DNA from: an uncultured Lachnospiraceae bacterium
Lineage (GTDB): Bacteria > Bacillota > Clostridia > Oscillospirales > CAG-272
Direction of reading: 5' to 3'
Assembly (NCBI GenBank): GCA_964603455.1
Contig: CAZRVL010000001.1
Location: 17,031-81,030 of the forward strand
Length of the DNA: 64,000 nt
Shown: piece by piece, positions 11,487 through 64,000 of the stretch
How positions within the stretch are numbered: position 1 is the first letter of the stretch
How the letters are laid out: each line of letters starts with the position of its first letter
Notes under the pieces: model-generated
What the model was told of the DNA's origin: nothing
What the model saw: the letters and a program-made list of their open reading frames with translations, nothing else
The model's database searches: none
Translations under genes and position numbers: made by a program

Positions 11487-11492
11487 ACAATT

Positions 11493-43314: not shown

Positions 43315-44856
43315 TTGAAACAATATCTATATTCGAAATCTATCGAAGAGCTTCCTGTAAGTCATTGTGATGTACTGGTTGTCGGCGCGGGCATAGCCGG
43401 ACTTTATGCGGCGCTTGAGCTTCCCTCCGAGCTGAATGTAACTATAGCGACCAAGGTCGGATTTGATATGTCAAACTCATATCTCGCTCAGGGAGGCATA
43501 GCTTCGGTTATCGATTCTTCAGACAGATTCGATTCGCATATCGAGGATACCCTAAAGGCAGGTGCCGGTGAATGCGATCTCAAAGCCGTCACGACCCTTG
43601 TAAAGGAAGGACCTGAGAACATACGCCACCTTGTTGATATGCTCGTTCCATTCGACAAAAAGGACGATGGCTCGCTCATGATAACCCGTGAAGGCGGTCA
43701 TTCCTGCCGCAGAATAGTCCATTGCGGAGGTGATGCGACCGGTCGAGAGGTCACAAAGCGTCTCACCGAGATAGCTCTCACACGGGATAACATAACTATA
43801 CTCCAAAACACAAATCTCATAGATATATTGACAGAGAACGGTGCAGTTGTCGGTGCGCTGCTTTCTGGAGAAAAGGATCACATAGTGTCCTGTTCAAAGA
43901 TCATTCTCGCCACAGGCGGAATAGGTGCGCTGTATGAGCATACTACCAATCCCTCCGGTGCAGTCGGTGACGGTATAGCAGCAGCAGCCAGAGCCGGTGC
44001 AAAGGTCGTGAACATGGAATTTGTACAGTTCCATCCGACTACGATGATACCTCAGTCAGGTCAGACCGAACGCAGATTCCTTATCTCCGAAGCTGTCCGC
44101 GGTGAAGGCGGTATATTGAAGAACCATTTGGGCGAAGCCTTTATGCAGGGCAAGCATCCACTCGCAGATCTCGCTCCGCGTGATATTGTGACACGTGAGA
44201 TACTCCATGAAATGCGCAGAACAGGCGAAGCTCATGTATTCCTTGATGTTTCTGCTATGAGTGAGGAGTTTTTCGCAAAACGTTTCCCAACAATATACGG
44301 CGAGTGCAAGAAATACGGTATCAACATTCCACGCGATATGATCCCTGTTGAGCCGGCTCAGCATTATCTTATGGGCGGTATCGAAACAGATATTGATGCA
44401 AGGACCTGTGTAAAGGGTCTCTATGCCTGTGGAGAATGCGCATGGACAGGTGTTCACGGTGCAAACAGGCTGGCAAGCAATTCTATGCTCGAATGCCTTG
44501 TATTCGGGCGCAGAGCCGCAAGATCGGCAGCCAACGACAAATTTGCCGAAAAACAGGATAGATTCTCGATCAAAACAGTCGAAGGGAAACCTATTTCGGA
44601 TGAATATATCGAAACCAAGCGAAGTGAACTCCGCGCTGTGATGACCGAAAACCTAAACGCCGTAAGAACACTTTCGGGAATGGCAAAGGCAAAAGATTAT
44701 GTTGATAAACTTCTTGCAGAGCTTGATATGAGCTCAATTTCCACAAAGCGCGGATATGAGCTTTACTCACTTTCCACAGCCGCAAAATTCATAACCGATG
44801 GTGCATTGGCACGTGAAAAATCGGTCGGTGCGCATTATGTCGAATACTGTGAATAA
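43315..44856 (+). CDS. nadB: L-aspartate oxidase
   Basis: TTG start. FAD motif VLVVGAGIAGLYAAL, plus RFLISEAVRGEGG and GLYACGECAWTGVHGANRLASNS. Confidence 0.9.
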   Translation: MKQYLYSKSIEELPVSHCDVLVVGAGIAGLYAALELPSELNVTIATKVGFDMSNSYLAQGGIASVIDSSDRFDSHIEDTLKAGAGECDLKAVTTLVKEGPENIRHLVDMLVPFDKKDDGSLMITREGGHSCRRIVHCGGDATGREVTKRLTEIALTRDNITILQNTNLIDILTENGAVVGALLSGEKDHIVSCSKIILATGGIGALYEHTTNPSGAVGDGIAAAARAGAKVVNMEFVQFHPTTMIPQSGQTERRFLISEAVRGEGGILKNHLGEAFMQGKHPLADLAPRDIVTREILHEMRRTGEAHVFLDVSAMSEEFFAKRFPTIYGECKKYGINIPRDMIPVEPAQHYLMGGIETDIDARTCVKGLYACGECAWTGVHGANRLASNSMLECLVFGRRAARSAANDKFAEKQDRFSIKTVEGKPISDEYIETKRSELRAVMTENLNAVRTLSGMAKAKDYVDKLLAELDMSSISTKRGYELYSLSTAAKFITDGALAREKSVGAHYVEYCE

Positions 44857-44949
44857 ACCGGAGTTTTCCACATTTCCAACAGGCTTTTCCCCAAATTCCG
44901 AGGTTGTGGCAAACAGAGTGTGGAAATATTCTGTGGAAAATGTGGAAAA
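44737..44949. promoter_or_regulatory. Cluster of seven DnaA-box-like 9-mers (three forward, four reverse)
   Basis: Forward: ATTTCCACA 44737, CTTTCCACA 44770, TTTTCCACA 44864. Reverse: TTTGCCACA 44905-44913, ATTTCCACA 44919-44927, TTTTCCACA 44932-44940 and 44941-44949. They were compared with the DnaA-box consensus TTATCCACA / TT(A/T)TNCACA. Confidence 0.5.
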
Positions 44950-46030
44950 TGCAATACGTTTTCAGCTCAAGAAGCTCGGCTGTTCGGATATGTTCAAGGA
45001 TAAGAGGGTCGCAATAAAGCCGAACCTCGTCATGAAAAAATCTCCCGAAGCTGCTGCTACTACTCATCCGATAGTTCTCGAAGCTATGCTAAGGATACTC
45101 AAAGAATCGGCTGCCGACATAGTTATCGCCGAAAGTCCTCCCGGTGTATACACGGAATCTGCGCTTAAAGGCTTTTACAATGCCTGCGGTATCACCGAAG
45201 TTGCCGAAAGATATTCGGTAAGGCTAAATTTTGACACATCGAGCCGAGAGGTCAGCATACCATATGCCAAAAGTGCGCATATGTTCGAGCTGATAACTCC
45301 GATGCTCGATGCCGATGTCATAGTCAATCTTGCAAAGCTCAAAAGTCATGCGCTGACTAAATTCAGCGGCACTGTCAAGAATTATTTCGGAACTGTTCCG
45401 GGAATAACGAAGGTCGAAACACATGCAAGATTTCCCGATTACGGTGATTTTGCCTCTATGCTCGTTGATCTATGCTCATATTTTGCATTTTCGAAGCCGA
45501 CATTCAATATACTTGACGGAATATTGGCTATGGAAGGAAACGGTCCTACCGGCGGCGATGCCCGCGAGCTCGGATGGCTTCTTTCCGGACTCAACCCATA
45601 CAACGTCGATATAGTCGGAGCAAAACTGATCGGATTCGACGATATTATGATGCTGAACGAAGCAATAAAACGCGGATATGCGGTGAGTGAGCCGCTTGTG
45701 TACGGAGATCCTTTGGAAATTGTGGAAAACTTTAAGCTGCCTGACACATCCGGCTCGACTTCAGCTCTCGAATGGCTTTCAAAAGCCTTCGGAGGCAGGC
45801 TGTACAAATGGCTCCAACCGCGTCCTGAGGTTTCCACAAATATGTGCATAAGTTGTGGGGAATGTGTAAGAAGCTGTCCCCAAAAGACGATCAGGATAGT
45901 TGAAGGAAAGAAACGACACGCACTTATCGATGATTCGGGCTGCATAAAATGTTACTGCTGCCAGGAAATGTGTCCGGTCAAGGCAGTTCGGATAAAGAAA
46001 AATCCGATAATGAAGTTACTTGGGGGTTAA
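44837..46030 (+). CDS. DUF362-domain protein with a C-terminal 2x[4Fe-4S] ferredoxin domain (start uncertain)
   Basis: DUF362-like N-terminal region (KRVAIKPNLVMKKSPEAAATTHPIVLEAMLRILKE). Two ferredoxin-type Cys clusters: CISCGECVRSCP and CIKCYCCQEMCP. ATG 44837 has no good SD and overlaps nadB by 20 nt; in-frame GTG candidates lie at 44906 and 44918. Confidence 0.7.
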   Translation: MSNTVNKPEFSTFPTGFSPNSEVVANRVWKYSVENVENAIRFQLKKLGCSDMFKDKRVAIKPNLVMKKSPEAAATTHPIVLEAMLRILKESAADIVIAESPPGVYTESALKGFYNACGITEVAERYSVRLNFDTSSREVSIPYAKSAHMFELITPMLDADVIVNLAKLKSHALTKFSGTVKNYFGTVPGITKVETHARFPDYGDFASMLVDLCSYFAFSKPTFNILDGILAMEGNGPTGGDARELGWLLSGLNPYNVDIVGAKLIGFDDIMMLNEAIKRGYAVSEPLVYGDPLEIVENFKLPDTSGSTSALEWLSKAFGGRLYKWLQPRPEVSTNMCISCGECVRSCPQKTIRIVEGKKRHALIDDSGCIKCYCCQEMCPVKAVRIKKNPIMKLLGG

Positions 46031-46033
46031 GAT

Positions 46034-46918
46034 TTGAACATAACATTATTAGCACACGCAAAGATAAATCTCTGGCTCGACATAAAATCCAAACGAGTTG
46101 ACGGCTATCACAACATCGAAAGCATCATGCAGACCGTGAGCTTATGTGATGAACTGACGATAGAGCGGCTCGATCGAGGCAAAGGTATAACTATGCGCTG
46201 TGATGACAACAGCCTTGACTGCGGAAGGACAAATCTATGCACACGCGCTGCCGAAACCTTTTTAAGCTCGGTCGGAATAAACGAATACAGCATATCTATA
46301 GACCTAAAAAAACGCATTCCGATCTCTGCCGGACTTGGAGGCGGAAGCACAGACGCAGCCGCTGTGATACGTGCGCTGAATAAACTGTTCGAGCTTCGGC
46401 TGTCAGTCGATGAGCTTTGCAGGATAGGCGTAAAAGTCGGTGCAGATGTTCCATTCTGTATACGCGGCAAAACTGCTGTTGTACGCGGTATAGGAGATAT
46501 TCTCGAAGAATGTGAAAAAATGCCGAAATGTCCGATACTGATCGCCTGCGACGGTGAATCGGTATCGACTCCCGAAGCATACGGAATGATGGATGAACTC
46601 TACGGCGATTTCACATCGAGAACGAAAAGCGCATATGAGCTTGCAGATACCTTCAAATCCGGTGACATCTCGAAGATCGCAAACGGATTTTACAATATAT
46701 TTGAATCTGCGATACTCAAAAAGCGTCCGCGAGCGCAGTATCTTAAGGATTTCATGCTGTCATCGGGTGCGTTGAACGCGCTGATGAGCGGAAGTGGGCC
46801 TTCGGTGTTCGGTGTATACGATGAGCTTGCAAAAGCCGAAGCGGCTGCCGATGAGCTTAAGCACAATGGCATTAAGGCTGTAGTATGCGAGCCATATTAC
46901 GATAACGCCCGTCTGTAA
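46034..46918 (+). CDS. ispE: 4-diphosphocytidyl-2-C-methyl-D-erythritol kinase
   Basis: TTG start. Motifs AKINLWLDIKSKRVDGYHNIES and the GHMP kinase motif PISAGLGGGSTDAAA. Confidence 0.85.
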   Translation: MNITLLAHAKINLWLDIKSKRVDGYHNIESIMQTVSLCDELTIERLDRGKGITMRCDDNSLDCGRTNLCTRAAETFLSSVGINEYSISIDLKKRIPISAGLGGGSTDAAAVIRALNKLFELRLSVDELCRIGVKVGADVPFCIRGKTAVVRGIGDILEECEKMPKCPILIACDGESVSTPEAYGMMDELYGDFTSRTKSAYELADTFKSGDISKIANGFYNIFESAILKKRPRAQYLKDFMLSSGALNALMSGSGPSVFGVYDELAKAEAAADELKHNGIKAVVCEPYYDNARL

Positions 46919-47002
46919 TATATTTAAGACGATCTATATAAACATTTATGCTCACATAGAGCGGAAAGGATGCTTTCAAAACGAAAGCAATGGTATATCA
47001 TA

Positions 47003-48067
47003 ATGAAGCTTTTAAAACCTGTCTCGGCACTTCTTGCCCTGACCCTCGTATCTGCACAGCTTTTTGCGTGCGGTGACAGCAAATCAAATTCGGATACCTT
47101 CGATTACAGCAAAGGACTCGACAACAACGGATTCTTTGAGAACGTCAAGGCTTCGGATTATGTCAATCTTCCCGACTATAAAGGAATTGAATTTGATGGC
47201 TCGATACTCACAGCTGCCGAGGATGAAGTTCAGACTCAGCTCGATGGTGTTCTCGAAATATATTCGACATACGAAGAGATAACCGATGCCGAAGTCAAAG
47301 ACGGCGATACAGTCAATATTGATTATGTAGGCTCTGTGGACGGCGTTGAATTTGCCGGCGGAAGCACTCAGGGTCAGGGTACGATAGTTACTATCGGTGT
47401 TACCTCATATATAGACGATTTTCTTGAGCAGCTCATCGGTCACAAGCCGGGCGATACCTTTGATGTTAATGTCACCTTCCCCGATCCTTATCCGAACAAC
47501 ACTGATCTCAGCGGCAAGGATGCGGTATTCAAGACCACTATAAATTATATCCAGGGCGAAGAGATCTCGGCTGAGCTTACTAATGAGCTGGCTGCTTCCT
47601 ATGGCTTTGATTCTGCCGATGCGATGATGGAAAATATTCGTGAATGGGTAGTTGACAAGCAGAAGTTCGAATTTTTCACCGACATTCTTGCAAAAGCTAC
47701 CGCTTCCAAGGACATTCCTCAGTCGGTCATAGATTATGTTATCGATTACGACATCTCGCAGTATGAATATTACGCTTCGGCTTATCAGATGACAGTCGAT
47801 GAGATCATCACGAATCTTCTCGGCTACGATTCCAAGCAGGCTTATATTGATGCGAATATGGATATATATGAGGAAAACGCAGTCCAGTATCTCGCGGCTC
47901 AGGCTATTGCAGAGCTTGAAGGCTTGACTGTGACAGATGCCGACATCGAGGAAGCCGGATACACCGATACACAGATAGATACCTACGGACTCCCCTATAT
48001 CAAGCAGTATATCCTCTTCCAGTCGAAGATCCCGAACTATATCATCGAAAACGGACAGGCAAAGTAA
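47003..48067 (+). CDS. Lipoprotein with a trigger-factor-type FKBP PPIase domain and trigger-factor C-terminal-like region
   Basis: Lipobox AQLFACGD. PPIase domain GDTVNIDYVGSVDGVEFAGGSTQGQGTIVTIGVTSYIDDFLEQLIGHKPGDTFDVNVTFPDPY matches the trigger-factor pattern. The ribosome-binding N-domain is absent. Confidence 0.65.
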   Translation: MKLLKPVSALLALTLVSAQLFACGDSKSNSDTFDYSKGLDNNGFFENVKASDYVNLPDYKGIEFDGSILTAAEDEVQTQLDGVLEIYSTYEEITDAEVKDGDTVNIDYVGSVDGVEFAGGSTQGQGTIVTIGVTSYIDDFLEQLIGHKPGDTFDVNVTFPDPYPNNTDLSGKDAVFKTTINYIQGEEISAELTNELAASYGFDSADAMMENIREWVVDKQKFEFFTDILAKATASKDIPQSVIDYVIDYDISQYEYYASAYQMTVDEIITNLLGYDSKQAYIDANMDIYEENAVQYLAAQAIAELEGLTVTDADIEEAGYTDTQIDTYGLPYIKQYILFQSKIPNYIIENGQAK

Positions 48068-48071
48068 GCTT

Positions 48072-48875
48072 ATGGAGACAAACAAGACACATGAAATGGT
48101 CGATAGAGTATTCCGTTCGACCGCGAATTATGATGACTTCGAAAAGCTGTGCGAATTGTTTCGTTCAGCTAAGGCGGTATGCACACTGACCGATGAGAAC
48201 AGGAATCGTCCGTTCTTCGCTCCGTATATATACACCTGCTCCTGCTGTGGCGTTACATTAGCCGATGAAAACTGGAACTGTGTTGCCTTCACCGAAAATA
48301 ACGTATTGAGCGTTCGACCTATATCGAATGATTATTACGTATATACGCTTGAAGTTGAGACCACTTGTGAGGTATATCCGCGCCAAAGCGATGAGATCGC
48401 CGACAGGAACGTTGTATATCTTTCCTTCTATACACTTCCTAAGGAAGGCAAAAAGGAGCAGGACAGCCGTTCTGACGATGAGAGCTACAAGGCATTCGAT
48501 ATAGGAATGAATCGGCTATTTACAGGCATATATGATCTCGATACGCTCGGATGGTTCTGTGATACCGTAATGGCGGTATACGATGCTTCGTGCGATCCCG
48601 ACGAAGCGATGATGATGCTGACGATAAACGAGCGAGTACAAGATCCTACCTCAAATGCGGTTTACGTAAATGAGATCAACTATGATAAAAAATCACTGAC
48701 ATTTGCTGCCGATGCCGGAAACGGAGAAACTTTGACTTTGACATTATCTCCGGAAAGGGTAATGGGAGTTGAACGCATAGCTTGTGTAAACAATTCCTTC
48801 TACTGTGTTGAGATCGATCTCGCTCAAACTTCCACATCCTCCCCATCATACATTCAATTAGGAATCTTTCTCTAA
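48072..48875 (+). CDS. Hypothetical cytoplasmic protein, no family recognised
   Basis: 267 aa, starting 4 nt after the lipoprotein stop. Cys pairs (YTCSCCG, CVAF, TTCEVY). No TM or signal peptide. Confidence 0.5.
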   Translation: METNKTHEMVDRVFRSTANYDDFEKLCELFRSAKAVCTLTDENRNRPFFAPYIYTCSCCGVTLADENWNCVAFTENNVLSVRPISNDYYVYTLEVETTCEVYPRQSDEIADRNVVYLSFYTLPKEGKKEQDSRSDDESYKAFDIGMNRLFTGIYDLDTLGWFCDTVMAVYDASCDPDEAMMMLTINERVQDPTSNAVYVNEINYDKKSLTFAADAGNGETLTLTLSPERVMGVERIACVNNSFYCVEIDLAQTSTSSPSYIQLGIFL

Positions 48876-48879
48876 ACGA

Positions 48880-49002
48880 GCAATAGTCAAGTGATCTGTA
48901 CAGAAAACTTATTATATCTCTCCCATAGTGTCACTTCCATACGGGAGCAGAGATCTGTTTTAAAAGACAACGATCTGTAATCAGCACAGATCATGCTATT
49001 GC
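48880..49002 (+). repeat. Intergenic repeat copy A (123 nt, with terminal inverted arms)
   Basis: It begins GCAATAGTCAAGTGATCTGTAC. The 5' arm GCAATAG..TGATCTGT (48880-48899) is complementary to ACAGATCA..CTATTGC (48986-49002). The core is homologous to copies B and C. Confidence 0.7.
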
Positions 49003-49024
49003 AATATATCTCAAAATCAAGTAC

Positions 49025-49058
49025 AAGGCGTGTCCGACTTATTGTCGGACACGCCTTT
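49025..49058 (+). terminator. Rho-independent terminator
   Basis: AAGGCGTGTCCGAC-TTATT-GTCGGACACGCCTTT, a 12-bp perfect GC-rich stem. Confidence 0.8.
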
Positions 49059-49127
49059 CAATACATACCACTTGATTTTTGTCGGCACGATGGTCGGATT
49101 TTTTCCCCTTTTATACGGATTTTGGGG

Positions 49128-49156
49128 TTGAATTTTTTGAGAAAATAGTGTATAAT
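49128..49156 (+). promoter_or_regulatory. Sigma-A type promoter of the GH127 gene
   Basis: TTGAAT (49128-49133), 17 nt, TATAAT (49151-49156). Confidence 0.65.
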
Positions 49157-49213
49157 AGTTGTAGTAAGATCAATGACGATCAACTAATATTGTTTATTTA
49201 AGGAGATAATATC

Positions 49214-51046
49214 ATGATCAACGCACTTTCGCATGATAAGATCAAGCTCACTTCAGGCTTTTGGAAGGAAAAACAAACGATGGTGAGAAAAACCACCATC
49301 ATGAACGTCTACAAGCGTTTTAAAGAAACCGGACGCTTCGATGCCTTTAAAATGAACTGGAAAGAGGGCGAGCCCAACAAGCCGCATATCTTCTGGGACT
49401 CGGATGTTGCTAAATGGCTCGAATCTGTCGCTTACCTCACTAAGGAATCCCCTGAGCCAGAGCTCGAAGCCATCGTCGATGAAGTAGTCGATGACATCGA
49501 AAGGGGTCAAATGGAAGACGGTTACTTCAATATCTATTACGAGCTCTTTGAGCCGAACAACCGCTTCACAGTACGCGGAAACCATGAGCTCTACTGTGCA
49601 GGTCATCTCATTGAAGCCGCTATCGCTTACGATGATGCTACAGGCAAGCATAAATTCCTCAACCTTATGCTGAAATATGCCGCTTATATCGAGAAGGTAT
49701 TCAAGATCGATCAGTCGGCTGCATTCGATTCTCCCGGTCATGAAGAAATAGAGCTCGCCCTTGTTAAGCTCTATGACTACACCGGAGACCGCAGATGGCT
49801 CGACCTCTCGCTTTTCTTCATCAACAACCGCGGCTCTCAGGCTAAGCTCCCCGAAGGCGACAACTACCACCGTGATACAAACATACAGGATCATGCTCCG
49901 GTTCGTGAGCAGTTCACAGCAGAGGGTCATGCAGTCCGTGCATGCTATCTCTACTGCGCTATGGCTGACCTCGCACTTCGTGAAAATGACGAAGGTCTTA
50001 AGAATGCCTGCGATAAGATATTCAAAGATATAACACAGTCGAAGATGTACATAACCGGTGCTATCGGCTCTACAAAGAATGCGGAAGCCTTTGAGGATGC
50101 CTATCGCCTTCCCGATGACACAGCTTACGGCGAGACCTGCGCGGCTCTTGCACTGGCTCTCTTCGCACGCAGAATGACAAGACTTGACCCAGATTCGGTA
50201 TACGCCGATACTGTTGAGCGCGTAATATACAATGGATTTCTCTCGGGAGTGTCGCTTGACGGAAAGTCCTTCTTCTATGAAAATGCACAGGAGATCGACC
50301 TTGAGAACCGCAAGATCGTCCGTGCCTCACTCCATAACAACCGCAATACCCACTTCCCGATAACTCAGCGTATTGAGGTATTCGGCTGCTCCTGCTGTCC
50401 TCCGAATGTGACAAGATTCATTCCGTCCATTGGTGATTTCATCTACAATTATACAAATGATATGGTTTACGTGAACCAGTATATGTCGAACGAAGCCGAT
50501 TTCGGCGATTTCAAGATAGAACAAAAGACTGGCTATCCGTATGACGGATCGGTCAGCATAGTATGCGACAAAGACAAAAAGCTCGCGATAAGGATCCCCG
50601 GTTGGTGCGATGTATGGACTTTAAAGTGCGGCGGTAAGGCAGTAAATGCCGAGGTCGTAAAGGGATATGCAATGCTCGAAGCGAATGGCGGCGAGGAAAT
50701 CGTGCTTGATATGCGCATAGAACCTAAGAAGGTGCGTGCGGATATGCGCGTAAGAGAAAATCGCGGACAGATGGCAGTGACCTACGGTCCGTTCGTAATG
50801 TGCATGGAAGGTGTTGACAACGGCGGTAGCTTATCCAACGTAGAACTCGGTGCGAACTTTGTGGTATCGCACGATGATGAGCTGAATGTTCCGTGCGTAT
50901 ATGCAGATGCGGTTCGAGTAGATGTAGCTTCATTATATTCGAACAAAGTAACAGAATCGCCGTTCCGCGCAAAGCTAATCCCGTATTTTGCATTTGCGAA
51001 CCGCGGTGAATGCGACCTCAAGATCTGGGTAGCAAGTCGCAAATAA
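49214..51046 (+). CDS. GH127 (DUF1680) beta-L-arabinofuranosidase-like hydrolase, cytoplasmic
   Basis: N-terminus GFWKEKQ...FDAFKMNW...HIFWDSDVAKWLE, GHEEIELALVKLY, and the Cys-rich metal/catalytic motif FGCSCCPPNV typical of GH127. Confidence 0.8.
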   Translation: MINALSHDKIKLTSGFWKEKQTMVRKTTIMNVYKRFKETGRFDAFKMNWKEGEPNKPHIFWDSDVAKWLESVAYLTKESPEPELEAIVDEVVDDIERGQMEDGYFNIYYELFEPNNRFTVRGNHELYCAGHLIEAAIAYDDATGKHKFLNLMLKYAAYIEKVFKIDQSAAFDSPGHEEIELALVKLYDYTGDRRWLDLSLFFINNRGSQAKLPEGDNYHRDTNIQDHAPVREQFTAEGHAVRACYLYCAMADLALRENDEGLKNACDKIFKDITQSKMYITGAIGSTKNAEAFEDAYRLPDDTAYGETCAALALALFARRMTRLDPDSVYADTVERVIYNGFLSGVSLDGKSFFYENAQEIDLENRKIVRASLHNNRNTHFPITQRIEVFGCSCCPPNVTRFIPSIGDFIYNYTNDMVYVNQYMSNEADFGDFKIEQKTGYPYDGSVSIVCDKDKKLAIRIPGWCDVWTLKCGGKAVNAEVVKGYAMLEANGGEEIVLDMRIEPKKVRADMRVRENRGQMAVTYGPFVMCMEGVDNGGSLSNVELGANFVVSHDDELNVPCVYADAVRVDVASLYSNKVTESPFRAKLIPYFAFANRGECDLKIWVASRK

Positions 51047-51091
51047 TCAAGTATGTGACAAAAAAGCATGAGGTATGACCTTATCAGCCGT

Positions 51092-51187
51092 GCGGAGTAT
51101 CTCCGCCGGCAATAGTCAAATGATGTGTACCAAAAATCGTTAAGTATCTACTATCAGCCGCACTTCATCGTGACATAAACAGAGGGC
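51092..51187 (+). repeat. Intergenic repeat copy B (about 96-nt core)
   Basis: CGGAGTATCTCCGCCGGCAATAGTCAAATGATGTGTACC...TATCAGCCGCACTTCATCGTGACATAAACAGAGGG. A partial extra sub-copy (AAAGCATGAGGTATGACCTTATCAGCCG) lies at 51063-51091. Confidence 0.7.
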
Positions 51188-51280
51188 TTGTAAAACGAAA
51201 TTAGTACTACTAAAAGTGTGTTCAAACAGACATTTTACATTAAATGTACAGCATTTCATATTATAGGAGGAGCGCGGCTA

Positions 51281-52099
51281 ATGAAGTCTGAGCAAAAGTA
51301 TTCAAATTATGAATATTTAACATATGAGCACGGCAGCACACCGCCGCGATATTGTAATTCCGGAAAGTTCACTTCTCGAAGTGAATGGATACATCCTCTT
51401 TACAACAATGAGACTACAGAGCTTATGTTTGTGACCGAAGGAGAATTTCTGCTCGAAGAGAACGGAAACGAGTATAAACTTTCATCGGGAGATATAATAT
51501 ATCTCGATGCCGGAAAAACACACAAGGGTGTAAAGATCACCGATTCGAAGGTATCATTCTACTGGATACATTTTTATCTTCCGAACGGTGAGGTCATGCC
51601 TATAAAGCATCTTACCTTACGTGAGGTATATCCGGTGAGCTTATTATGCCGTCAGATACTGCATTATGCCGAGAGCAAGGCAAGTCCAAAGGTATTGGAC
51701 AGCTTATTATGTGTACTGATCGAAGAGATCGACTCTCAGGACATAAAAAAAGAGTCGCTCGATTCATTAGCCGAGCGCATAGTGGAATGGCTCAGGATAA
51801 ACTCAGATCGTCAGTTAAAGACTTCTGACATCTCCGAGCGGTTTGGCTACAATGAGGATTACATCTCCCGTTTATTAAAGCATGAATACGGTCGTACATT
51901 AAAACAGATGATAGTTGACAAGCGCATGGAGTACATCAAATACCTATTATCCGAGACTGAGCTTACTCTGACCGACATATCCTTTCGTTCCGGATTTACC
52001 GATGTAAAATTATTTCTAAAGTTCTTTGCTTATCACGAGGGCATAACTCCGACCGAATACCGCGCTACATACAAGTCCGGTCACACCAACAACCGCTGA
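51281..52099 (+). CDS. AraC family transcriptional regulator
   Basis: SD AGGAGG upstream of ATG 51281 (MKSEQKY). Cupin-like N-domain and C-terminal HTH (GFTDVKLFLKFFAYHEGITPTEYR). Confidence 0.8.
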   Translation: MKSEQKYSNYEYLTYEHGSTPPRYCNSGKFTSRSEWIHPLYNNETTELMFVTEGEFLLEENGNEYKLSSGDIIYLDAGKTHKGVKITDSKVSFYWIHFYLPNGEVMPIKHLTLREVYPVSLLCRQILHYAESKASPKVLDSLLCVLIEEIDSQDIKKESLDSLAERIVEWLRINSDRQLKTSDISERFGYNEDYISRLLKHEYGRTLKQMIVDKRMEYIKYLLSETELTLTDISFRSGFTDVKLFLKFFAYHEGITPTEYRATYKSGHTNNR

Positions 52100-52101
52100 C
52101 A

Positions 52102-52197
52102 ACGGAGTGTCTCAGCCAACAATAGTCACATAATGTTTACCGAAAGCATTAGGTATGTCCCATCAACCGCATTTTATCGTGACAGGAACAGAATGGA
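52102..52197 (+). repeat. Intergenic repeat copy C (about 96-nt core)
   Basis: CGGAGTGTCTCAGCCAACAATAGTCACATAATGTTTACC...CATCAACCGCATTTTATCGTGACAGGAACAGAATGG. It aligns base-for-base with copy B with one indel, and roughly 70 percent of positions match by eye. Confidence 0.7.
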
Positions 52198-52272
52198 TAT
52201 TTATGAGACGGCAACGATTGGTAATGATTATTTTTATAGAATATCTATCTCATGCGATACAAAATCGATAAT

Positions 52273-52303
52273 AAAAGTGCCTGACTTTCGGTCAGGCACT
52301 TTT
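52273..52303. terminator. Bidirectional terminator
   Basis: AAAAGTGCCTGAC-TTTCG-GTCAGGCACTTTT between the convergent AraC and SBP4 genes. Confidence 0.8.
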
Positions 52304-52323
52304 ATAGTTATATACGATACACG

Positions 52324-53802
52324 TCACTCGATATTTCTTACCAGTTCGGTGATCTCAGCAAGATAATTTTCTGCCGATGATTTGTTTGAATCATAGTATG
52401 AAGTTATGTTTACATTCTTTTTGGCAATATTGTCGCGGTATGAGTTCATAGGAGAGAACTTGTACTTTCCGCTCGCTTCAAGGAACATCGAGAAGTCATA
52501 TTTTCTCGAATCCATGATGAGATCAAGCATCTTCAGAGAATTTTCATCGCGAACGCCCTTCTCTGCCAACGAGACCTCATATACCGCAGGTCTCATATAT
52601 TTGTAGCCGTATGCAGACATACACTCTACAACTTCACCGATCACTTCAAGCTTTTCATCACTTATGTTTATCGGGAGGAAGAAGACTCCGGTACGTCCAA
52701 GCATATGCGTTTGATATTCTGCCTGATTCTCATCGAGCTTCGGGTACGGAAGTATTCCGTAGTCGTCACTCATTGATCTAAGGTCTGTTCCGATAAGATA
52801 ATTCAAAAGCATCGGCGAGAATAATGCCTGTCCGTTCGCAAAATTAACTCGATAATCATACGGTGCGTTCGTATCTACATAAGCCCCCGAATTGTTCCAG
52901 TAGAGATCATACAGCTTCTCTATCGATGTAACCAATCTGTCACTGTAGAAATCTACGACCGGGTAATTGTCGCTGTCGCGTCCTATTGATGTAACACCGT
53001 GCGACACCATGAAAGCGTCAAGTGTTGCAAATGAATCGGTATATAAGCCGTAAATATCATCCGCATCGCTCTGATTGTTTCCGTTTAGATCGACATATAC
53101 ATCCTTTGTAAGCGAATATGCCTTGTCCATAGTCCATTTACCAGACTCGACTGTCTCGTAAATATCGCCGATATTCCACTCATCTGCAAGACGCTTATTG
53201 AACACCCACGTCCAACACATCGTTATATTTGTGGAACAAGCATCAGAAAGTATTCCGAATTGACTGTCACCTATCTTTATCTGCTCGTTAGCATCCTCTA
53301 CATACCACGGCTTAGAAAGGTCGTAACCCTTCACATCGTTCCACGGCATTACCGTTCCGCTCGTTATGATATTTCCGGCATATATCGCCTTCATAACATA
53401 CATATCACAGAGATTGTCACCTGCCAGAATGCTCTGATTGAAGGTCGAGACCGAATCGCGTTCGGCGAATGAGCAGTCGTATACCAATTTCACGCCAAGA
53501 CGATTTTCGGTTTCGATATTGCGCTTATATATCGCGTCATCGACCGGTTCACCGGTCTGCTCGGCTTCGAATGCCTCGGAATCCACATAGTTGTAGCCTG
53601 CCGCTCCGTAGCCGAATATCCTTATCTCCATTCCATCCATATCGCGCTGAGGAAGCTCATCGTATATGTCTACCTCGTTAGAGGTAGTCTCATTAGAACT
53701 TGTTTGCTCAGTTCCCCCCTCAGTGGAAATAGTTTCATTTCCGCACGCTGCTGTCGAAATCAGCAGAGACGCAAGAAGTGCAACAGATACCGCCTTTTTC
53801 AT
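52324..53802 (-). CDS. Solute-binding-protein-type lipoprotein, paralog 4
   Basis: SD GAAAGGA lies 11 nt before ATG 53802. Lipobox ISTAACGN. Motifs YGILPYPKLDENQAEY and YEVSLAEKGVRDENSLKMLDLIM. Confidence 0.6.
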   Translation of the reverse strand: MKKAVSVALLASLLISTAACGNETISTEGGTEQTSSNETTSNEVDIYDELPQRDMDGMEIRIFGYGAAGYNYVDSEAFEAEQTGEPVDDAIYKRNIETENRLGVKLVYDCSFAERDSVSTFNQSILAGDNLCDMYVMKAIYAGNIITSGTVMPWNDVKGYDLSKPWYVEDANEQIKIGDSQFGILSDACSTNITMCWTWVFNKRLADEWNIGDIYETVESGKWTMDKAYSLTKDVYVDLNGNNQSDADDIYGLYTDSFATLDAFMVSHGVTSIGRDSDNYPVVDFYSDRLVTSIEKLYDLYWNNSGAYVDTNAPYDYRVNFANGQALFSPMLLNYLIGTDLRSMSDDYGILPYPKLDENQAEYQTHMLGRTGVFFLPINISDEKLEVIGEVVECMSAYGYKYMRPAVYEVSLAEKGVRDENSLKMLDLIMDSRKYDFSMFLEASGKYKFSPMNSYRDNIAKKNVNITSYYDSNKSSAENYLAEITELVRNIE

Positions 53803-53825
53803 TAATATATCCATCCTTTCATAAA

Positions 53826-56342
53826 TTATTTTTTATAGTTCCAATGCTCATCGGGGAGAATATCATACGGGCGCAGAAATTCGAGCTTTCTGTAGTCACC
53901 GAAATTTTCCTTTGCCTGGAAGCATATTGAAACACCTCCGCTTATATGCTTTCCGACATAGCAACCACGCTTCTCATCATATTCAAGCTCACATTTCGGA
54001 CCTCTCCAAAGATCCCAGACACCGCCGACAAATGCTGTTCCTCCCTTTTCGGGATATATCGTCAGTTCGGCATCGCAAAGTCCGTTTATGACATATCTTT
54101 CATCGTTGTTGACCACAACGTCCGCAACATGTTCGCGCTTTAAAGAGATCTTCGAACGCTTTTCCTGCTTCACGAAGACACGGCAGTCGGTATGTATCCA
54201 TCTTGACAACGGATACGTTCCGATACTGTTGTCGATGGTAAATTCGCTATTGTCAAACGCAGGTGCTCCGAGCGGAGTCGTGTAATTCATCTTTACTGAA
54301 GCATCCTTTGCAAAGAGATTATATACAAGCGAATTGCGGCATTTTGCGAACTGAACTATCGGAAGATTATCATCAACACTGAAGGTCTCAAACGTCAAGC
54401 CATATCCGAACAGCTCAAGCGCACATCTCGGGAGCATCGCAGTCGGGAAATACTTCGAAGGCATGAGCTTCGGAGGGAGTCCGCCCTTGTCTCCGTGAGG
54501 GAACGAGCCGCGTATCCATACAAGCCCCATATCCTTGTTATAGGTCATATACGCACGCTTTTCGCCGTCCTTCGATACCTCGGCAGCGACATAAGTGCTA
54601 CCGTTCGAAATCTCGCCGATACCGCCGTTCGACATGAGAGAGGGATGGGAGATCATATTGGAATATTCATTCACCTCAGCCTTGTCGAGCTTAAGCTCAG
54701 TCGAAAGCTCAAGTTCACCGCAAAGCTCGGTCGAATATGCTATGCCGACAGCATCAAGAAGCTTTCTTGACGCATTTCGCAAACTTCCGACCAGGATAAC
54801 TCTAACACCCTTCTCAATAGCCTCGAACAATGCCGCTTCGAGTCGGCTGTCAGCCTTCGGAACAGGTGTGAAAAGTATAGTGTTCACGAGTCCGGACTTA
54901 TCACAGACGATGAAATTCTCATCGGATATTACGCTGTTCAGCGGCATTCCCATATCAATAGCCGCTTCAACATACCAGTCGTCCATGAAAATCTCCGAGA
55001 TATGTCCCTCATGAAGACCGCTCTCGCAGTATGCCTCGAAGGGATATACCCATGTTACAAGTCCGGCCTCATCGGGATAATCGTTGTATGCGGTAAGAAG
55101 GTGCGGTATGACCTCATTCGGACAACGTTCGGGAAGTCTGCCGTATGAATCGTCTGCCGACAGGAAGCTGAGTCCGAACGGCTTTGTAACCTCAAGCTTT
55201 TCGTCGAGTCGAGCCAAAGCGAGCGGAAGATATATATCATGCGGACTGCGGTCATATCTGTCGAACCACGGCGAATTTATCCACCATGGGTCATGTATAT
55301 AATAACGAAGGTTGAAGCCCTTCTCAGGCAAACGTGCAGTATGCGACATACAGCCTGCAAGCTCAAGACCGAAACGATAGTTGAGCGGTGCCCAGGGAGA
55401 GTTCGGCGGTGCTACAAGGTTCTTTTGAGAATATATCTCATCTATCGGACAGCCGTGCGCCGAAATATCCATTCCGGTCGAGAGATTCGAGCCGCGTGTT
55501 TCGACCCTTGTATCGCCGATCTCGGCTGTGAAATATTTCCAGAACTCAGATATGTTATCGCGCACCTTTTTTGCGCCGTCAAAGTTGAATTCAGTTCCGT
55601 TGAAAAGCTCACCTGTCCAGTTCCAGGAAGCGAGCGAGAAACCGAAGCCGTTCGACAGCCAAATATAGTCAAAGCCCAGATCGCGCTTCATAGCCATGAA
55701 CTGCCGTCCCAAGAACTCACCGATATGCGTACCTTCGGGAATACCGTTCGGATAAGCGGCATAATGCCTGTCATCACCGTGAAGCCTTGATGCACAATGC
55801 ACCCACATCTTGCTTCCCATAATATCGCCCTTGCATATCTCGGTGTGGCGGTTGTATTTAAAGTCTGACCATGCAAATTCAGGTCCCGGATCAAAGGTCT
55901 CGCCTACCTCGATGTCAAAGCCTGTGATCTCTTTACCGACACGCTTCATGATCGAAATTATGCGTTTCAGATCACCATAGGTCATTTCGGGCGGATTTTC
56001 GATGTAGTTCAGCGGATAAGCATGAAGACTGAGACGATCTGCGCGTGAATGCGGGTCTGATTCTCTGTTCCAGTTTCCTATACCGAGATATTTGCACCAT
56101 TCAAAGCTGTCATCCATATTGCCGGAATATTCGAGTATCTCCGAGCCGTCGCTCGTCCAAAAAAGCAGCGCACAGCCCGTTGCATATTTAAGTAGCGGTC
56201 TCCACTGATCAAACAGCTCACGTGCGACCTTTTCAAAGCCTTCATCGCTCATATCTCTGCCAAAAGGCTTAAGGCTTATCTCAAGGCATACTCTTCCGGC
56301 ATTCGTTGTGCTTTTATATTCGTAATTAAACATTATTTTCAC
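53826..56342 (-). CDS. Large cytoplasmic protein of unknown family (candidate carbohydrate-active enzyme)
   Basis: An uninterrupted 838-aa ORF with no signal peptide or TM, and no family motif I can name. It is flanked by the isomerase and SBP4 genes with 12- and 23-nt gaps. Confidence 0.5.
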   Translation of the reverse strand: MKIMFNYEYKSTTNAGRVCLEISLKPFGRDMSDEGFEKVARELFDQWRPLLKYATGCALLFWTSDGSEILEYSGNMDDSFEWCKYLGIGNWNRESDPHSRADRLSLHAYPLNYIENPPEMTYGDLKRIISIMKRVGKEITGFDIEVGETFDPGPEFAWSDFKYNRHTEICKGDIMGSKMWVHCASRLHGDDRHYAAYPNGIPEGTHIGEFLGRQFMAMKRDLGFDYIWLSNGFGFSLASWNWTGELFNGTEFNFDGAKKVRDNISEFWKYFTAEIGDTRVETRGSNLSTGMDISAHGCPIDEIYSQKNLVAPPNSPWAPLNYRFGLELAGCMSHTARLPEKGFNLRYYIHDPWWINSPWFDRYDRSPHDIYLPLALARLDEKLEVTKPFGLSFLSADDSYGRLPERCPNEVIPHLLTAYNDYPDEAGLVTWVYPFEAYCESGLHEGHISEIFMDDWYVEAAIDMGMPLNSVISDENFIVCDKSGLVNTILFTPVPKADSRLEAALFEAIEKGVRVILVGSLRNASRKLLDAVGIAYSTELCGELELSTELKLDKAEVNEYSNMISHPSLMSNGGIGEISNGSTYVAAEVSKDGEKRAYMTYNKDMGLVWIRGSFPHGDKGGLPPKLMPSKYFPTAMLPRCALELFGYGLTFETFSVDDNLPIVQFAKCRNSLVYNLFAKDASVKMNYTTPLGAPAFDNSEFTIDNSIGTYPLSRWIHTDCRVFVKQEKRSKISLKREHVADVVVNNDERYVINGLCDAELTIYPEKGGTAFVGGVWDLWRGPKCELEYDEKRGCYVGKHISGGVSICFQAKENFGDYRKLEFLRPYDILPDEHWNYKK

Positions 56343-56354
56343 CCTTTCTTTAAA

Positions 56355-57791
56355 TCATGCGAGCGGTTTTTCGAGCTTTATGCCCATCATACGCGCAAAT
56401 ATTTCGATTTCCTTCATATGATCTCCGACACCGAGAGCCAGATGATGTGTAGGTCCTGCCGCACACCAACGCTCAACAAATTCATTTGCCGGGACATTGA
56501 AACGGCATTTTGTGTTCGTGTTTCCGGTAGCAGGTATCGCGCCCGGTCTCGATTCACCATTCGCCGCTATCAGCTTCATAGCTCCGTCTCGTCCTACCGA
56601 ACAGGATAACAGCGATATTTCACCGGTTTTAAGCTTAAATTCAACCGAAACTCCCGCCCCGGATTTTCCGTGGAACTTTTTCAGCTTTCGAAGCACCGGA
56701 CGCTCATCGCTGATATTTATATTGTGCGGACCGTCATGACCTATGAGTACGATGTCATCGACCGTATCGAACGGATGAAGCTCCGCAAACGAACCACCGC
56801 CGCCTATGCGGTTCATTATCAGCATAGCCGCTGCAGTCTTCAGATCGGCTTCTCCTGCCAACGGTATCCCGCGGCTCGTAAGGAGTGAATTTCCGATGAT
56901 CAGATTTGATGCTATCCGCTCATATTCATTGCCGTTCTCGCCCTTGTAGTAATATGCCAGTGCGGTAAGACCGTTTTTCTCGACAAGCTCGTCAAGTCCG
57001 ACCGAGCATTTTGCGGCAAGCTCAAGATCCGAATCGCTGACATAATCGGTCAATGGGTCATTCGATGGCTCACGAATATCGAATATCGACTTTATGACTT
57101 CGATGCGTTCCTTCACCTGTTGTTCGGTAACAGAATTGACATATTCACAAAGTTCACACATTTCGAGCATCTTGACATGAGCTCCGAACGCCGCCGAGAA
57201 CGCAGTCGGGTCGGTATTCATGTCATACATTCCATCATAAGTGTGACCGAGATAACCGAATTTCGCATACTTGAATGCCGAGACAGCCGATATTGCACGC
57301 TCCAACAAACCGACACGTTTAGCTATAACCTCACGATCATTTGCAGTCTCGACCAGAAGAAAAGGCTTCTTAGCACCGAGCCGTTCGTAAACTCCGACAA
57401 ACTCAGGCATTGAACATATGTCATCATTCATAAGCTGCATATAAGTTGTGGTTTTGGAGTAATCGAGCCTTTCGAGCGGTTGGAGAGCGACCAATATCTG
57501 AGGTATGTTGAGATATTTCGCAAACGGGAACACGACCTGAGAGGTTATGTAGGTTGACATTATTATGAACAGCGCATCAAGATCGAACGAGGCAGCCTTT
57601 TTAAGGCATATATATGAGCTGTCAATATCATCGGCAAAGCCGAGGTCGATGACTTCAACGTCATCCGAAAAATATTTTGCGAAATCGACCTGTTTTTGTC
57701 TCAGATCATCAAGAAGACCATCAAACTGCGGCCAGTATATGTAGTGACCCATTCCGATAAGTCCTATCCGAGCCTTACGTGTGTGAAGCAT
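56355..57791 (-). CDS. L-fucose/L-arabinose isomerase family protein
   Basis: 478 aa. The N-terminus ARIGLIGMGHYIYWPQFDGLLDDL and overall size fit the COG2407-type sugar isomerases. The SD is weak. Confidence 0.55.
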   Translation of the reverse strand: MLHTRKARIGLIGMGHYIYWPQFDGLLDDLRQKQVDFAKYFSDDVEVIDLGFADDIDSSYICLKKAASFDLDALFIIMSTYITSQVVFPFAKYLNIPQILVALQPLERLDYSKTTTYMQLMNDDICSMPEFVGVYERLGAKKPFLLVETANDREVIAKRVGLLERAISAVSAFKYAKFGYLGHTYDGMYDMNTDPTAFSAAFGAHVKMLEMCELCEYVNSVTEQQVKERIEVIKSIFDIREPSNDPLTDYVSDSDLELAAKCSVGLDELVEKNGLTALAYYYKGENGNEYERIASNLIIGNSLLTSRGIPLAGEADLKTAAAMLIMNRIGGGGSFAELHPFDTVDDIVLIGHDGPHNINISDERPVLRKLKKFHGKSGAGVSVEFKLKTGEISLLSCSVGRDGAMKLIAANGESRPGAIPATGNTNTKCRFNVPANEFVERWCAAGPTHHLALGVGDHMKEIEIFARMMGIKLEKPLA

Positions 57792-57955
57792 TTTTTAGCC
57801 ATAAGTCTCCGATAATACGGAAGCTTCCTTTCGGGATATTTTTATGTGTCGATATAGCGACAAGTTTATATAAATATAATACCACATTAAAACAGCCATG
57901 TAAATGGACAAATCGACCAAAATAGCACAATACGACCACTCAGGTGAATTTTTTC

Positions 57956-57984
57956 TTGACAAATCCACAGTTTGGGTGTAAAAT
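57956..57984 (+). promoter_or_regulatory. Sigma-A type promoter of the AraC gene at 58018
   Basis: TTGACA (57956-57961), 17 nt, TAAAAT (57979-57984). Confidence 0.6.
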
Positions 57985-58017
57985 ATAATCATGATAATTT
58001 TTAGAAAGGAGCATCAA

Positions 58018-58851
58018 ATGAACGACCAGGTTCAGCAGGCAGATTTCGACATACAGATACGCGAACTGCTTTTAGTTCACAAAAACACCTTTATCCATCG
58101 CTTCAAATGGACAGAATACCGCAGCGGACGGATTATAGACGGCTTCACGATGTGCGTATCCGGAAAAGCATACTTCGACTTTGGCAGCTTCGGCTTCGAG
58201 CTGAATGCGGGCGAAGCGGTATTTCTTCCGGCTGCAAGCTCATATGTAGTGCGCTGTGAGAGCGAAGAACCATTCATACATTATACAATCAATTTCAGAC
58301 TCGAACCGAGTGAAGACCCCGACTGCAAGGTAACGGCATTCTCCGAAATATCCGCAGGAAATCTCAGGCATATCACAAGCTCTGACAGCGCAAATATCTA
58401 TCTCGTAAGACTTGAAGAACTGCTGTCTGTCTGGCAAAGCAAAAAAAACGGCTATCGCGTGAAAGCCAAGGCAATATTATATGATCTGCTCTACCTATAC
58501 TTCACCGATGCAGGTCGCACTCACCGAAATCGTGACGAATATAATATGCTCCTCCCCGCAAAAAAACTGCTCGACGCACACTACAGTGGCTCTGAAACTA
58601 CCGCAGAATTAGCAGAGCTGTGCAATATGAGCGTAACGACCTTCAGACGGATGTTCACAAAGCTTTTTGCCATGCCGCCGATGGAATATAAGACAAATAA
58701 GCGCATACTTCGCGCAAAGGATCTTCTGCTCTCGGGACAGTATTCTATAAGCGAAGCGGCACATGAGGTCGGATTTACCGATCCGAATTACTTCACAAGA
58801 GTCTTCAAGGCACGCGAAGGCATCTCACCGTCCGAATTTATTCGCGGCTGA
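58018..58851 (+). CDS. AraC family transcriptional regulator
   Basis: SD AGAAAGGAG lies 6 nt before ATG 58018. Cupin-like N-domain and HTH (GFTDPNYFTRVFKAREGISPSEF). Confidence 0.8.
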   Translation: MNDQVQQADFDIQIRELLLVHKNTFIHRFKWTEYRSGRIIDGFTMCVSGKAYFDFGSFGFELNAGEAVFLPAASSYVVRCESEEPFIHYTINFRLEPSEDPDCKVTAFSEISAGNLRHITSSDSANIYLVRLEELLSVWQSKKNGYRVKAKAILYDLLYLYFTDAGRTHRNRDEYNMLLPAKKLLDAHYSGSETTAELAELCNMSVTTFRRMFTKLFAMPPMEYKTNKRILRAKDLLLSGQYSISEAAHEVGFTDPNYFTRVFKAREGISPSEFIRG

Positions 58852-58856
58852 TATAT

Positions 58857-58900
58857 AAAAAGCTATCCTTCCAAATTTCCACGGAAGGATAGCTTTTTTT
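58857..58900. terminator. Bidirectional terminator
   Basis: AAAAAGCTATCCTTCC-10 nt-GGAAGGATAGCTTTTTTT, a 12-bp stem with A and T runs. Confidence 0.8.
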
Positions 58901-58910
58901 CATTAAATTG

Positions 58911-61573: not shown

Positions 61574-61575
61574 AC

Positions 61576-63048: not shown

Positions 63049-63149
63049 TTTATTACCATAGCATTTGCAAATGCAGCTTTACACTGCAAAGCCAAAGCAT
63101 CCTTTCTGTTCCGTATAGAAACATGTTTTTAAAGTTTATTATGAAAAAT

Positions 63150-64000
63150 TCATCTGTTGTTGTCAAGTATTCCCTTTAGATAACCTATCGCAAACATCCG
63201 ACCGAGCGCATCGTATCCGTCCTGCTTTCCGCTTTCAAACGGAAGTGTCGGAACATGATCGACTCTTATCGGAATATCACTTGCACCGTTCTTGCAGTAC
63301 TTTGTATAGAGACGTATCGCATCTGCCATATCAATATCACCGTTATCGTGATATGTTTCGGAGAAATCTTTCTTTACACCGCGTACATTTCTGAAATGCA
63401 CGAAGAATATTTTATCAGCCAATGTAGGTATCGCCTCACCAAGCTCCTCACCCATCAGTTTGTAGCACGCTTGACAGAAGGTCACACCCAGATTAGGCGA
63501 ATCTGCCACTGACATACCGCGCTTTATAGCTTCAAGGCTCGTAAATATCCTTCCGACTCTGCCAAGCGATGCAAGCGGCGGATCATCCGGATGAAGTGCC
63601 AGCTTTATGCCGTATTTCTCCGCATACGGTATTACCGCCTTTATAAAATAGACATAATTCTCCCAAACCTGCTCACTCGGCAGCACATATCCGTCATCAC
63701 AAAAATCATCGAGCTTGAATCCTGTGACATATGCTCCTCCGCGTTCCGGCAGAGTCTTAGACGTGCGCGTCCAGCCGTAATGTGCCATAAAATTAAAGCA
63801 CACCGTGGTTACCCCCTCGCGTCCAAGGTTCTCCATAAGCTTTATAAAGGCTTCTATCGACTCATCACGCATATTGTCTCCAAGCTTTATATGATCGTGG
63901 AGCGAATTTGGGAGCGGCTCGACAACTAGCGGAGTTATACCATGAGATCTGAATCGATCACATACGGTCTTCAGCATTTCGGATGAAGTGACATCGAAGT
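63150..64000 (-). CDS. uxuA: Mannonate dehydratase, 5'-truncated by the window edge
   Basis: Motifs VCFNFM, LALHPDDPP, FVHFRNV and RVDHV. The frame stays open upstream of the track Met (63977) to position 64000 (..FDVTSSEMLKT). Confidence 0.8.
   Translation of the reverse strand, partial: FDVTSSEMLKTVCDRFRSHGITPLVVEPLPNSLHDHIKLGDNMRDESIEAFIKLMENLGREGVTTVCFNFMAHYGWTRTSKTLPERGGAYVTGFKLDDFCDDGYVLPSEQVWENYVYFIKAVIPYAEKYGIKLALHPDDPPLASLGRVGRIFTSLEAIKRGMSVADSPNLGVTFCQACYKLMGEELGEAIPTLADKIFFVHFRNVRGVKKDFSETYHDNGDIDMADAIRLYTKYCKNGASDIPIRVDHVPTLPFESGKQDGYDALGRMFAIGYLKGILDNNR

Follow-up and report, generated by a model that had tools for sequence, protein, structure and literature searches.

An earlier note on a stretch of 64,000 nucleotides (nt) from an uncultured Lachnospiraceae bacterium (contig CAZRVL010000001.1; the whole stretch is called the window in the following) had pointed to three short intergenic repeats behind a hypothetical gene of 267 amino acids (aa), a GH127 beta-L-arabinofuranosidase gene and the gene of an AraC-family regulator, and we were interested what these repeats are and how they came to lie beside these genes. 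The copies occupy each of the three joints of a relocation of the AraC gene that is specific to this lineage; this is the key result of the analysis and bears out the link to rearrangement junctions that the note had proposed to check. The feature as such is of an ordinary kind (small junction or MITE-like repeats; MITE, miniature inverted-repeat transposable element) in a new lineage, and its value lies in a clean, dated example of the rewiring of a regulator and its target, from a divergent to a co-directional AraC/GH127 pair.

Repeat copies at the joints of a relocated AraC gene

The three same-orientation repeats are real and lie where they had been described. Their 21-nt head, CAATAGTCAMRTRATNTKTAC, is found three times and no more in the window, always on the plus strand (48881, 51110 and 52120), where shuffles lead one to expect 0.07 matches. 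Besides the copies A, B and C, a truncated fourth copy (B0) and an inverted head (A') were delimited:

48880-49002, plus strand: copy A, a 123-nt imperfect hairpin with the head at 48881-48906 and an inverted head-like tail at 48982-49002
51041-51090, plus strand: truncated copy B0, head and middle, the head overlapping the GH127 stop codon (51044-51046)
51093-51190, plus strand: core of copy B, with a 17-nt 5' extension, head, middle and tail 1
52103-52258, plus strand: copy C, with 5' extension, head (52120-52145), middle, tail 1 and a tail 2 that holds a degenerate inverted head
49056-49081, minus strand: inverted head copy A', abutting the terminator T_A (described below) towards the old divergent promoter region

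Copy B (51093-51183) and copy C (52103-52192) are 78% identical over 91 nt (blastn E 1e-15), and a repeat search returned halves of 81% and 78% identity within cores of about 95 nt (51093-51190 and 52103-52197) that differ by one 1-nt indel; this indel had been reported before, together with a match of roughly 70%, which is slightly below the 78-81% found here. Copy A is more diverged, with blastn E values around 1e-4 (1.5e-4 to B, 5.5e-5 to C) and a local alignment to C that scores 34, shuffles reaching 12.3 +/- 1.9. B0 lies in the 46 nt which separate the GH127 stop from B and gave local alignment scores of 22 to B and 19 to C, values that none of 1000 shuffles reached (8.0 +/- about 1.6); its strain alleles were also found by nhmmer (E 0.002). 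A' matches the head of A at 20 of 26 positions, where 0.04 such matches are expected per shuffled window. Copy A begins 5 nt past the stop (48875) of the 267-aa gene, for which no Pfam match was obtained, and copy C 4 nt past that of AraC (52099).

The units comprise 100-160 nt, within the range of about 50-500 bp typical of MITEs, and hold no conserved open reading frame (ORF), the indel placing B and C in different frames. A 77-aa ORF (52133-52366), which spans copy C and the terminator T_C behind it, is annotated as a gene in a public contig of the same species. Among 1.8 billion representative proteins it retrieved only itself, apart from a Bacteroidota repeat protein of type IX secretion that matched by composition, and with no real homologues it is almost certainly a spurious call.

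How the genes were arranged before can be read from the relatives. In all seven relatives' loci with an AraC orthologue (53-70% identical; L010, L011, L085/L086, L087/L088 and L089), GH127 and AraC are divergent and share an intergenic region of 120-220 nt, while a 490-aa gene converges on GH127. The locus L085 is collinear with the window from a second AraC gene through AraA, an 836-aa gene and the 490-aa gene to GH127, and the placement of AraC is the sole difference: in the window it sits inverted, downstream of GH127. Two further parts of the locus are needed here:

49093-49213, plus strand: ancestral GH127/AraC divergent intergenic region, not a repeat, which now serves only GH127 and has kept the old AraC ribosome-binding site on the minus strand
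51251-51346, plus strand: new AraC 5' region, with an AGGAGG ribosome-binding site (51267-51272), the start codon ATG at 51281 and a 19-residue N-terminal extension

By blastn, L010 aligns with its positions 929-2865 to 51028-49093 of the window, and L011 with its positions 1-72 to 49164-49093 (85% identity). The intergenic homology thus ends at 49093 and the nucleotide homology of AraC to its relatives begins at 51350 to 51362, with the old break within a few bases of the AraC start codon. From the seven divergent loci together with these limits of homology it follows that the co-directional GH127-AraC order is the derived one. The stretches without counterpart in the relatives are 48876-49092, 51047-51349 and 52100-52323, each of them essentially one copy of the repeated module, and removal of 52103-52258 leaves TGACAAAATCGA past the AraC stop, close to TGACAAAAATCGA in L085. 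Both AraC and the 267-aa protein fall from 99% to 70% identity as soon as sequences of the same species are left, and the collections searched hold no relative with either protein at 75-95%.

AraC starts with the ATG at 51281, not at 51283, and its 19-residue extension KSEQKYSNYEYLTYEHGSTPP (the 51281-51346 stretch) is missing from all homologues in the protein alignment; these cover 90-92% of the query, except for two shorter and more distant proteins with 75-76%. The new AGGAGG ribosome-binding site is likewise absent from the homologues, and no source of 51251-51346 was found. The extension looks like coding sequence recruited de novo and created by the rearrangement.

Copy A also marks a larger boundary of synteny. 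Gene order is shared with the loci L079-L084 over an AI-2E transporter gene, NadA and the 267-aa gene and ends at the last codons of the latter; in L079, from a relative at 70% identity, its counterpart is followed by a 597-aa FAD oxidoreductase gene and no repeat (48876-64000 compared with L079 10799-12735), and in the window by no less than 15 kb for the utilisation of arabinose and glycans.

Terminators, folding and change between strains

As stated in the earlier note, copies A and C precede terminators, and copy B has no working terminator before AraC. The segments that follow the three copies are:

49003-49057, no strand assigned: spacer with a head-like stretch (49011-49024) and terminator T_A (49025-49057; 14-bp perfect stem, 5-nt loop)
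52259-52305, no strand assigned: flank beginning with CAAAATCGA... and terminator T_C (52271-52305; 15-bp perfect stem, 5-nt loop)
51196-51250, plus strand: decayed counterpart of the terminator segment in B, with 59% identity (37/63) to flank and terminator of C

No other perfect hairpin in the window is as long as T_A and T_C, which have free energies of -27.8 and -24.3 kcal/mol; the equivalent in B reaches -5.6 kcal/mol. T_C serves both the AraC side and a convergent 496-aa gene. The stem GTGNCNGAC is common to both terminators (GTGTCCGAC in T_A resembling GTGCCTGAC in T_C), and at both positions where they differ the other arm has changed to match; no other clear compensatory change occurs in the region. 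The similarity of A and C runs, weakly, past the inverted-repeat end of A and through a second segment into both hairpins. Taken alone, the similarity of the two tails with their terminators is marginal (z 3.6; the observed score was equalled once the best of 300 shuffles was considered), and that of 51196-51250 is not significant by itself, its homology being suggested by position and order. The head-like arms, five to six in number and confined to this one locus, are not general to terminators, as the other 20 terminator-like hairpins in the window score at background. The extension of the A-C similarity into the hairpins and the decayed counterpart in B indicate that the repeated thing is a module of unit plus terminator, which A and C have kept whole and B holds in decayed form. 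With the hairpin of B decayed, GH127 and AraC could be co-transcribed.

Whether the unit has a conserved RNA structure was a further point. Copy B and C fold like shuffles (z about +1); C has only a degenerate inverted tail and B lacks that segment. A helix proposed in the earlier note, with one double substitution in its favour (51115-51123 with 51165-51174, 12 pairs), is indeed present in all alleles of B and C, with 90.5% of cells paired compared to 18-54% in slid controls. The same helix is broken in A at 6 of its 12 pairs, and the covariation did not stand up: a single pair is compensated, the covariation score was attained in 33 of 500 shuffles, and the RNAalifold consensus of -2.7 kcal/mol contains a covariation term of 0.02.

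The species is represented only by short metagenome contigs, which come from SRR27361838, SRR6824202, SRR6824203, SRR36265372 and ERZ27271066, and all ten of the same species (97.5-99.7% identical) carry every copy within their span, with no presence/absence differences. Two strains, L072 (98% identical) and L009 (99.3% identical), were compared with the window, four-fold degenerate sites from 11 genes serving as reference. The divergences are:

four-fold degenerate sites: L072 4.4%, L009 1.0%
copy A: L072 3.1%, L009 0.8%
copy B: L072 5.1%, L009 4.1%
copy C: L072 9.9%, L009 2.5%
promoter region and T_A: L072 0.5%, L009 0%

The core of C in L072 is the fastest-changing stretch, differing at 13 of 95 positions (13.7%) and thereby exceeding the 4.4% of the four-fold sites (p 5e-4). 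The promoter region with T_A changes below the four-fold rate in L072 (p 0.002; all copies against this region, p 4e-4), with no substitution between strains in 51 nt of the spacer/T_A segment and one in 156 nt of the promoter region. Since the copies change at or above the four-fold rate, the units are not under purifying selection, unlike the adjoining regulatory DNA. The excess of change in B and C is due to exchange between the copies: copy C of L072 has B-type bases at alignment columns 28-48 (about 20 nt) within C-type flanks, copy B of both L072 and L009 has C-type bases at columns 41-59, and copy C of L009 and L001 shows single B-type sites. These mosaic alleles (L072 10489-10586 and 11497-11596; L009 9812-9909 and 10822-10918) indicate ongoing gene conversion between B and C as direct repeats 1 kb apart.

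Origin of the repeats

We regard the repeats, with modest confidence, as lineage-specific and selectively neutral junction repeats from local duplication or recombination of one module of 3' untranslated region (UTR) plus terminator. A local duplication is favoured because the copies are confined to the breakpoints, because their similarity seems to enter the terminators, and because neither dispersed copies nor a parent element were found; we therefore infer an origin by duplication or recombination rather than by transposition. A module of a unit of about 100-160 nt and a Rho-independent terminator would have been multiplied locally while GH127 and AraC were rearranged. The AraC coding sequence was cut from the shared region at its start codon and is now found in inverted orientation downstream of GH127. 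Copy A and its terminator separate the 267-aa gene from the old promoter region, B0 and B lie between GH127 and AraC, and copy C and its terminator between AraC and the 496-aa gene. The retained terminators of A and C would end transcription of the flanking genes, and the decayed hairpin of B would permit read-through and co-transcription of GH127 and AraC from the old promoter region; one of three terminator-bearing modules would thus have lost its hairpin exactly where read-through is needed. The sequence past B would supply the ribosome-binding site, start codon and 19-residue extension of AraC. The unit itself would have no sequence-dependent function; it changes at the neutral rate, and B and C continue to exchange patches. 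Of the local segmental duplication with flanking coding sequence, which the note had named as a finding that would refute its reading, only one half applies: the copies are probably local duplicates, but flanking coding sequence is not included, the last 80 nt of AraC having no significant similarity to any copy.

Candidates for the source of the unit were rejected or gave hints only. An origin from the AraC 3' end was dismissed, as these last 80 nt matched every copy no better than shuffles or the ends of other genes, and the intergenic regions of the relatives showed no significant similarity. For an origin from the relatives' 3' UTRs there are uncorrected hints (p 0.012 for L011 with C; p 0.0025 for L085 with A', the latter from GACAAAAATC, which A' shares with the sequence just past the AraC stop in L085), on which we do not rely. 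The segment 49058-49092 was considered as a remnant of the AraC 5' coding sequence; homology ends within a few bases of the old start and the inverted head fits better. A role of the head as an AraC operator was likewise rejected, with no head-like match of at least 17/26 in the promoter region of the window.

Several observations weigh against the local-duplication account. The copies all point the same way with respect to the gene before them, and their starts coincide with a stop codon or lie a few bases from one; a random rearrangement requires neither. A simple inversion or a tandem inverted duplication, as a single step, fails to give three direct copies and an inverted gene; the net change needs two nested inversions, or an inverted copy and then a deletion. 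The head is conserved at 77-85% between A and B/C and the remainder of A at 34-53%; such unevenness is not expected of a duplicate that decays neutrally and uniformly, and would fit an end recognised by a transposase or recombinase, or a patch converted recently. Folding beyond the level of shuffles is seen in A alone (z -3.6 for the plus and -4.5 for the minus strand), an extra stability that comes from the pairing of its head with the inverted head-like tail; 48880-48901 with 48982-49002 makes a good terminal inverted repeat with ends of about 20 nt. The absence of further clear copies from about 60 kb excludes only families of more than about 100 copies, ACAA stands on both sides of C, though only when L085 is used to define the boundaries of this copy, and a dispersed member may exist at 11421-11488. 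This candidate and a second weak one are:

11421-11488, plus strand: possible fifth member in degenerate form, in which an imperfect terminator hairpin (11460-11488) follows a head-like 26-mer
52306-52346, minus strand: weakly supported candidate for an inverted head-like arm (C'), which overlaps the final codons of the 496-aa gene

The 26-mer at 11421 agrees with the head of C at 20 of 26 positions (0.04 matches expected per shuffled window) and sits 16 nt upstream of its hairpin between two minus-strand genes; nhmmer matches the head part only (E 5.8), and chance may also explain it. C' has a best head score of 17/26, the 99th percentile of background, with a gapped score of 10 that is not significant window-wide, and overlaps conserved coding sequence.

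The main rival reading is a small non-autonomous mobile element, MITE-like or similar to the pneumococcal SPRITE, with more copies elsewhere in the genome, whose local copies would have given the homology for the AraC relocation and which either inserts one-way between stop codon and terminator or brings its own terminator; the REP/MITE-like option of the earlier note survives in this form as a possible, yet less probable, origin. The 123-nt copy A with its inverted ends and strongly stable hairpin, the heads as best-conserved part (as for recognised ends), the shared orientation with starts at stop codons, the inverted head at 49056-49081 and the possible head-plus-terminator copy at 11421-11488 all agree with it, as does the near-L085 sequence obtained when 52103-52258, the piece flanked by ACAA, is excised. 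B0 and B form a truncated-plus-full tandem pair, and clustered and nested pneumococcal repeats of this kind are covered by a review on MITEs (PMC10969869). Against a mobile element, however, a profile of the three copies found no other clear copy in the remaining 60 kb or so of the window. The head pattern had 6 matches in 185,579 species genomes and a looser version 60 in a metagenome collection, all of them due to chance since only the stretch of the pattern matches the profile. There was no match in plasmid and phage records, and the relatives' loci gave no significant profile match and one nhmmer match at chance level (L079, E 0.32). A lack of further copies and of covariation had been named in the note as speaking against its own reading. 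No parent insertion sequence with head-like ends was found in the 185,579 genomes or the metagenome collection, and no transposase, HUH transposases included, among the ORFs of at least 150 aa scanned in 1-40119 and 43315-56342. Only A has clear inverted ends, the A-C homology continues past them, no common direct repeat flanks A, B and C as a target-site duplication, and the ten same-species contigs lack any presence/absence polymorphism; the 77-aa ORF without relatives is a further, weak point. A more specific variant would be an undescribed, lineage-restricted mobile repeat with its own bidirectional terminator that inserts in fixed orientation after stop codons, recombination between its copies being able to move a single coding sequence almost exactly from start to stop. 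We hold this to be rather improbable; if true, it would mean a terminator-borne reshuffling of operon architecture, by which a divergent regulator becomes the last gene of its target's operon. Should the whole genome show dispersed copies, the module would represent a family of small repeats with terminators from an uncultured lineage of Clostridia.

Selection on the unit as a functional RNA, be it a small RNA, a structure for mRNA stabilisation or processing, or a protein-binding module acting as 3' UTR or intercistronic segment, is very improbable. The copies do lie in the same sense directly after three stop codons and within transcription units, and the 12-pair helix with its one compensated pair is possible in every allele of B and C. 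The change of the copies at or above the four-fold rate, while the adjoining promoter and terminator are conserved, speaks against it, as do the shuffle-like folding of B and C, the helix broken in A, a covariation within that of shuffled controls and the lack of the unit in all relatives and in the large genome and metagenome collections. The 3'-UTR small RNA family and the protein-binding module put forward before are not supported. The note's statement that the repeats are neither terminators nor tRNAs nor any known RNA class was correct: Rfam 15 gave no match in the whole window at gathering thresholds, and at E up to 10 over 48700-52400 only terminator look-alikes at 52201-52339. Least probable of all, in our view, is that the heads are sites of a site-specific recombinase in a cassette-like or shufflon-like locus from which single genes are excised and reinserted. 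The promoter-GH127 block and the AraC block are each bounded by heads on both sides, the former by inverted ones (49056-49081 on the minus and 51041 on the plus strand), the AraC break lies within a few bases of the start codon with a repeat beginning 4 nt past the stop, and the window does contain a tyrosine recombinase gene. This gene, however, is 35 kb away and of ordinary Xer-like architecture, all ten same-species contigs, at a divergence of up to 2%, show one arrangement, and no attC-like RYYYAAC...GTTRRRY pair was found on either strand of 48800-52400 with a regular expression. The heads, moreover, are only 77-85% alike and vary between strains, and no such sites occur in the other genomes searched.

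The evidence speaks for selectively neutral repeat DNA, which is of little importance as an RNA or regulatory discovery. The repeats may rather serve as a caution to those who search for motifs: a series of repeats that follow stop codons in one orientation and show a single 'compensatory' pair can come about with no RNA function behind it.

Known repeat families and neighbouring genes

The REP elements of proteobacteria and the BIMEs built from them consist of palindromic units of 20-40 nt whose conserved 5' end is of the GTAG type. They number in the hundreds, alternate in orientation around hairpins and are associated with a RAYT transposase. The repeats described here are likewise extragenic, transcribed and placed after stop codons, and head-like arms follow each other in the order + - + - across 48881-49081; unlike in REP/BIME, no conserved GTAG-type end, high copy number or RAYT was seen. 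Duplicates at rearrangement junctions, such as segmental or inverted copies later reshaped by deletions, as a rule take in any sequence present at the break, in many cases a coding one. Confinement to the breakpoints of the derived order, neutral change and gene conversion between neighbours are shared with such duplicates, whereas the lack of coding sequence, the single orientation, the starts at stop codons and the unevenly conserved head are not. Integron attC sites are similar as same-orientation imperfect palindromes of 60-140 nt directly after the stops of consecutive co-oriented genes, but here inverted R''/R' core sites, which in attC stand 40-130 nt apart, and an adjoining integron integrase are missing, GH127 has its own promoter region and the arrangement is fixed.

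The pneumococcal SPRITE resembles the module as a short non-coding intergenic repeat with a terminator-like hairpin, located downstream of genes and often clustered or nested with other repeats. It is, however, dispersed in many copies over one well-studied genome, while here three and a half copies lie within 3.4 kb at the joints of one rearrangement, with no sequence similarity to anything outside the species in the collections searched. Similarly, ERIC, the Correia elements of Neisseria and the pneumococcal RUP are non-coding elements of about 100-160 nt in 3' UTRs or between cistrons that are tied to local rearrangement (general knowledge and PMC10969869), and copy A shares with them the imperfect long palindrome with inverted ends. 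These families differ by their tens to hundreds of copies, by defined ends in every copy and usually by a target duplication such as TA, in contrast to inverted ends in one copy, no consistent target duplication, no dispersed copies in 60 kb and no strain polymorphism in the present case.

The tyrosine recombinase gene mentioned above (13835-14851) encodes phage-integrase catalytic and SAM-like N-terminal domains and lies 2.4 kb from the possible head copy at 11421. The 496-aa gene behind copy C (52324-53814) is one of five genes of about 490 aa in the window, the others being 17113-18588, 18714-20177, 32090-33562 and 61576-63048. No Pfam match was obtained in the four that were scanned; for 61576-63048 the counterpart in L009 has only a weak match to SBP_bac_8. 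In a translated comparison the counterpart of 52324-53814 matched three of the other genes of this size, not 32090-33562. The five may form a family of sugar-binding lipoproteins of glycan-utilisation clusters. A sortase-dependent pilus cluster with a VWA tip pilin, an LPXTG-anchored backbone pilin, a sortase and a Cna-B protein occupies 204-7503.

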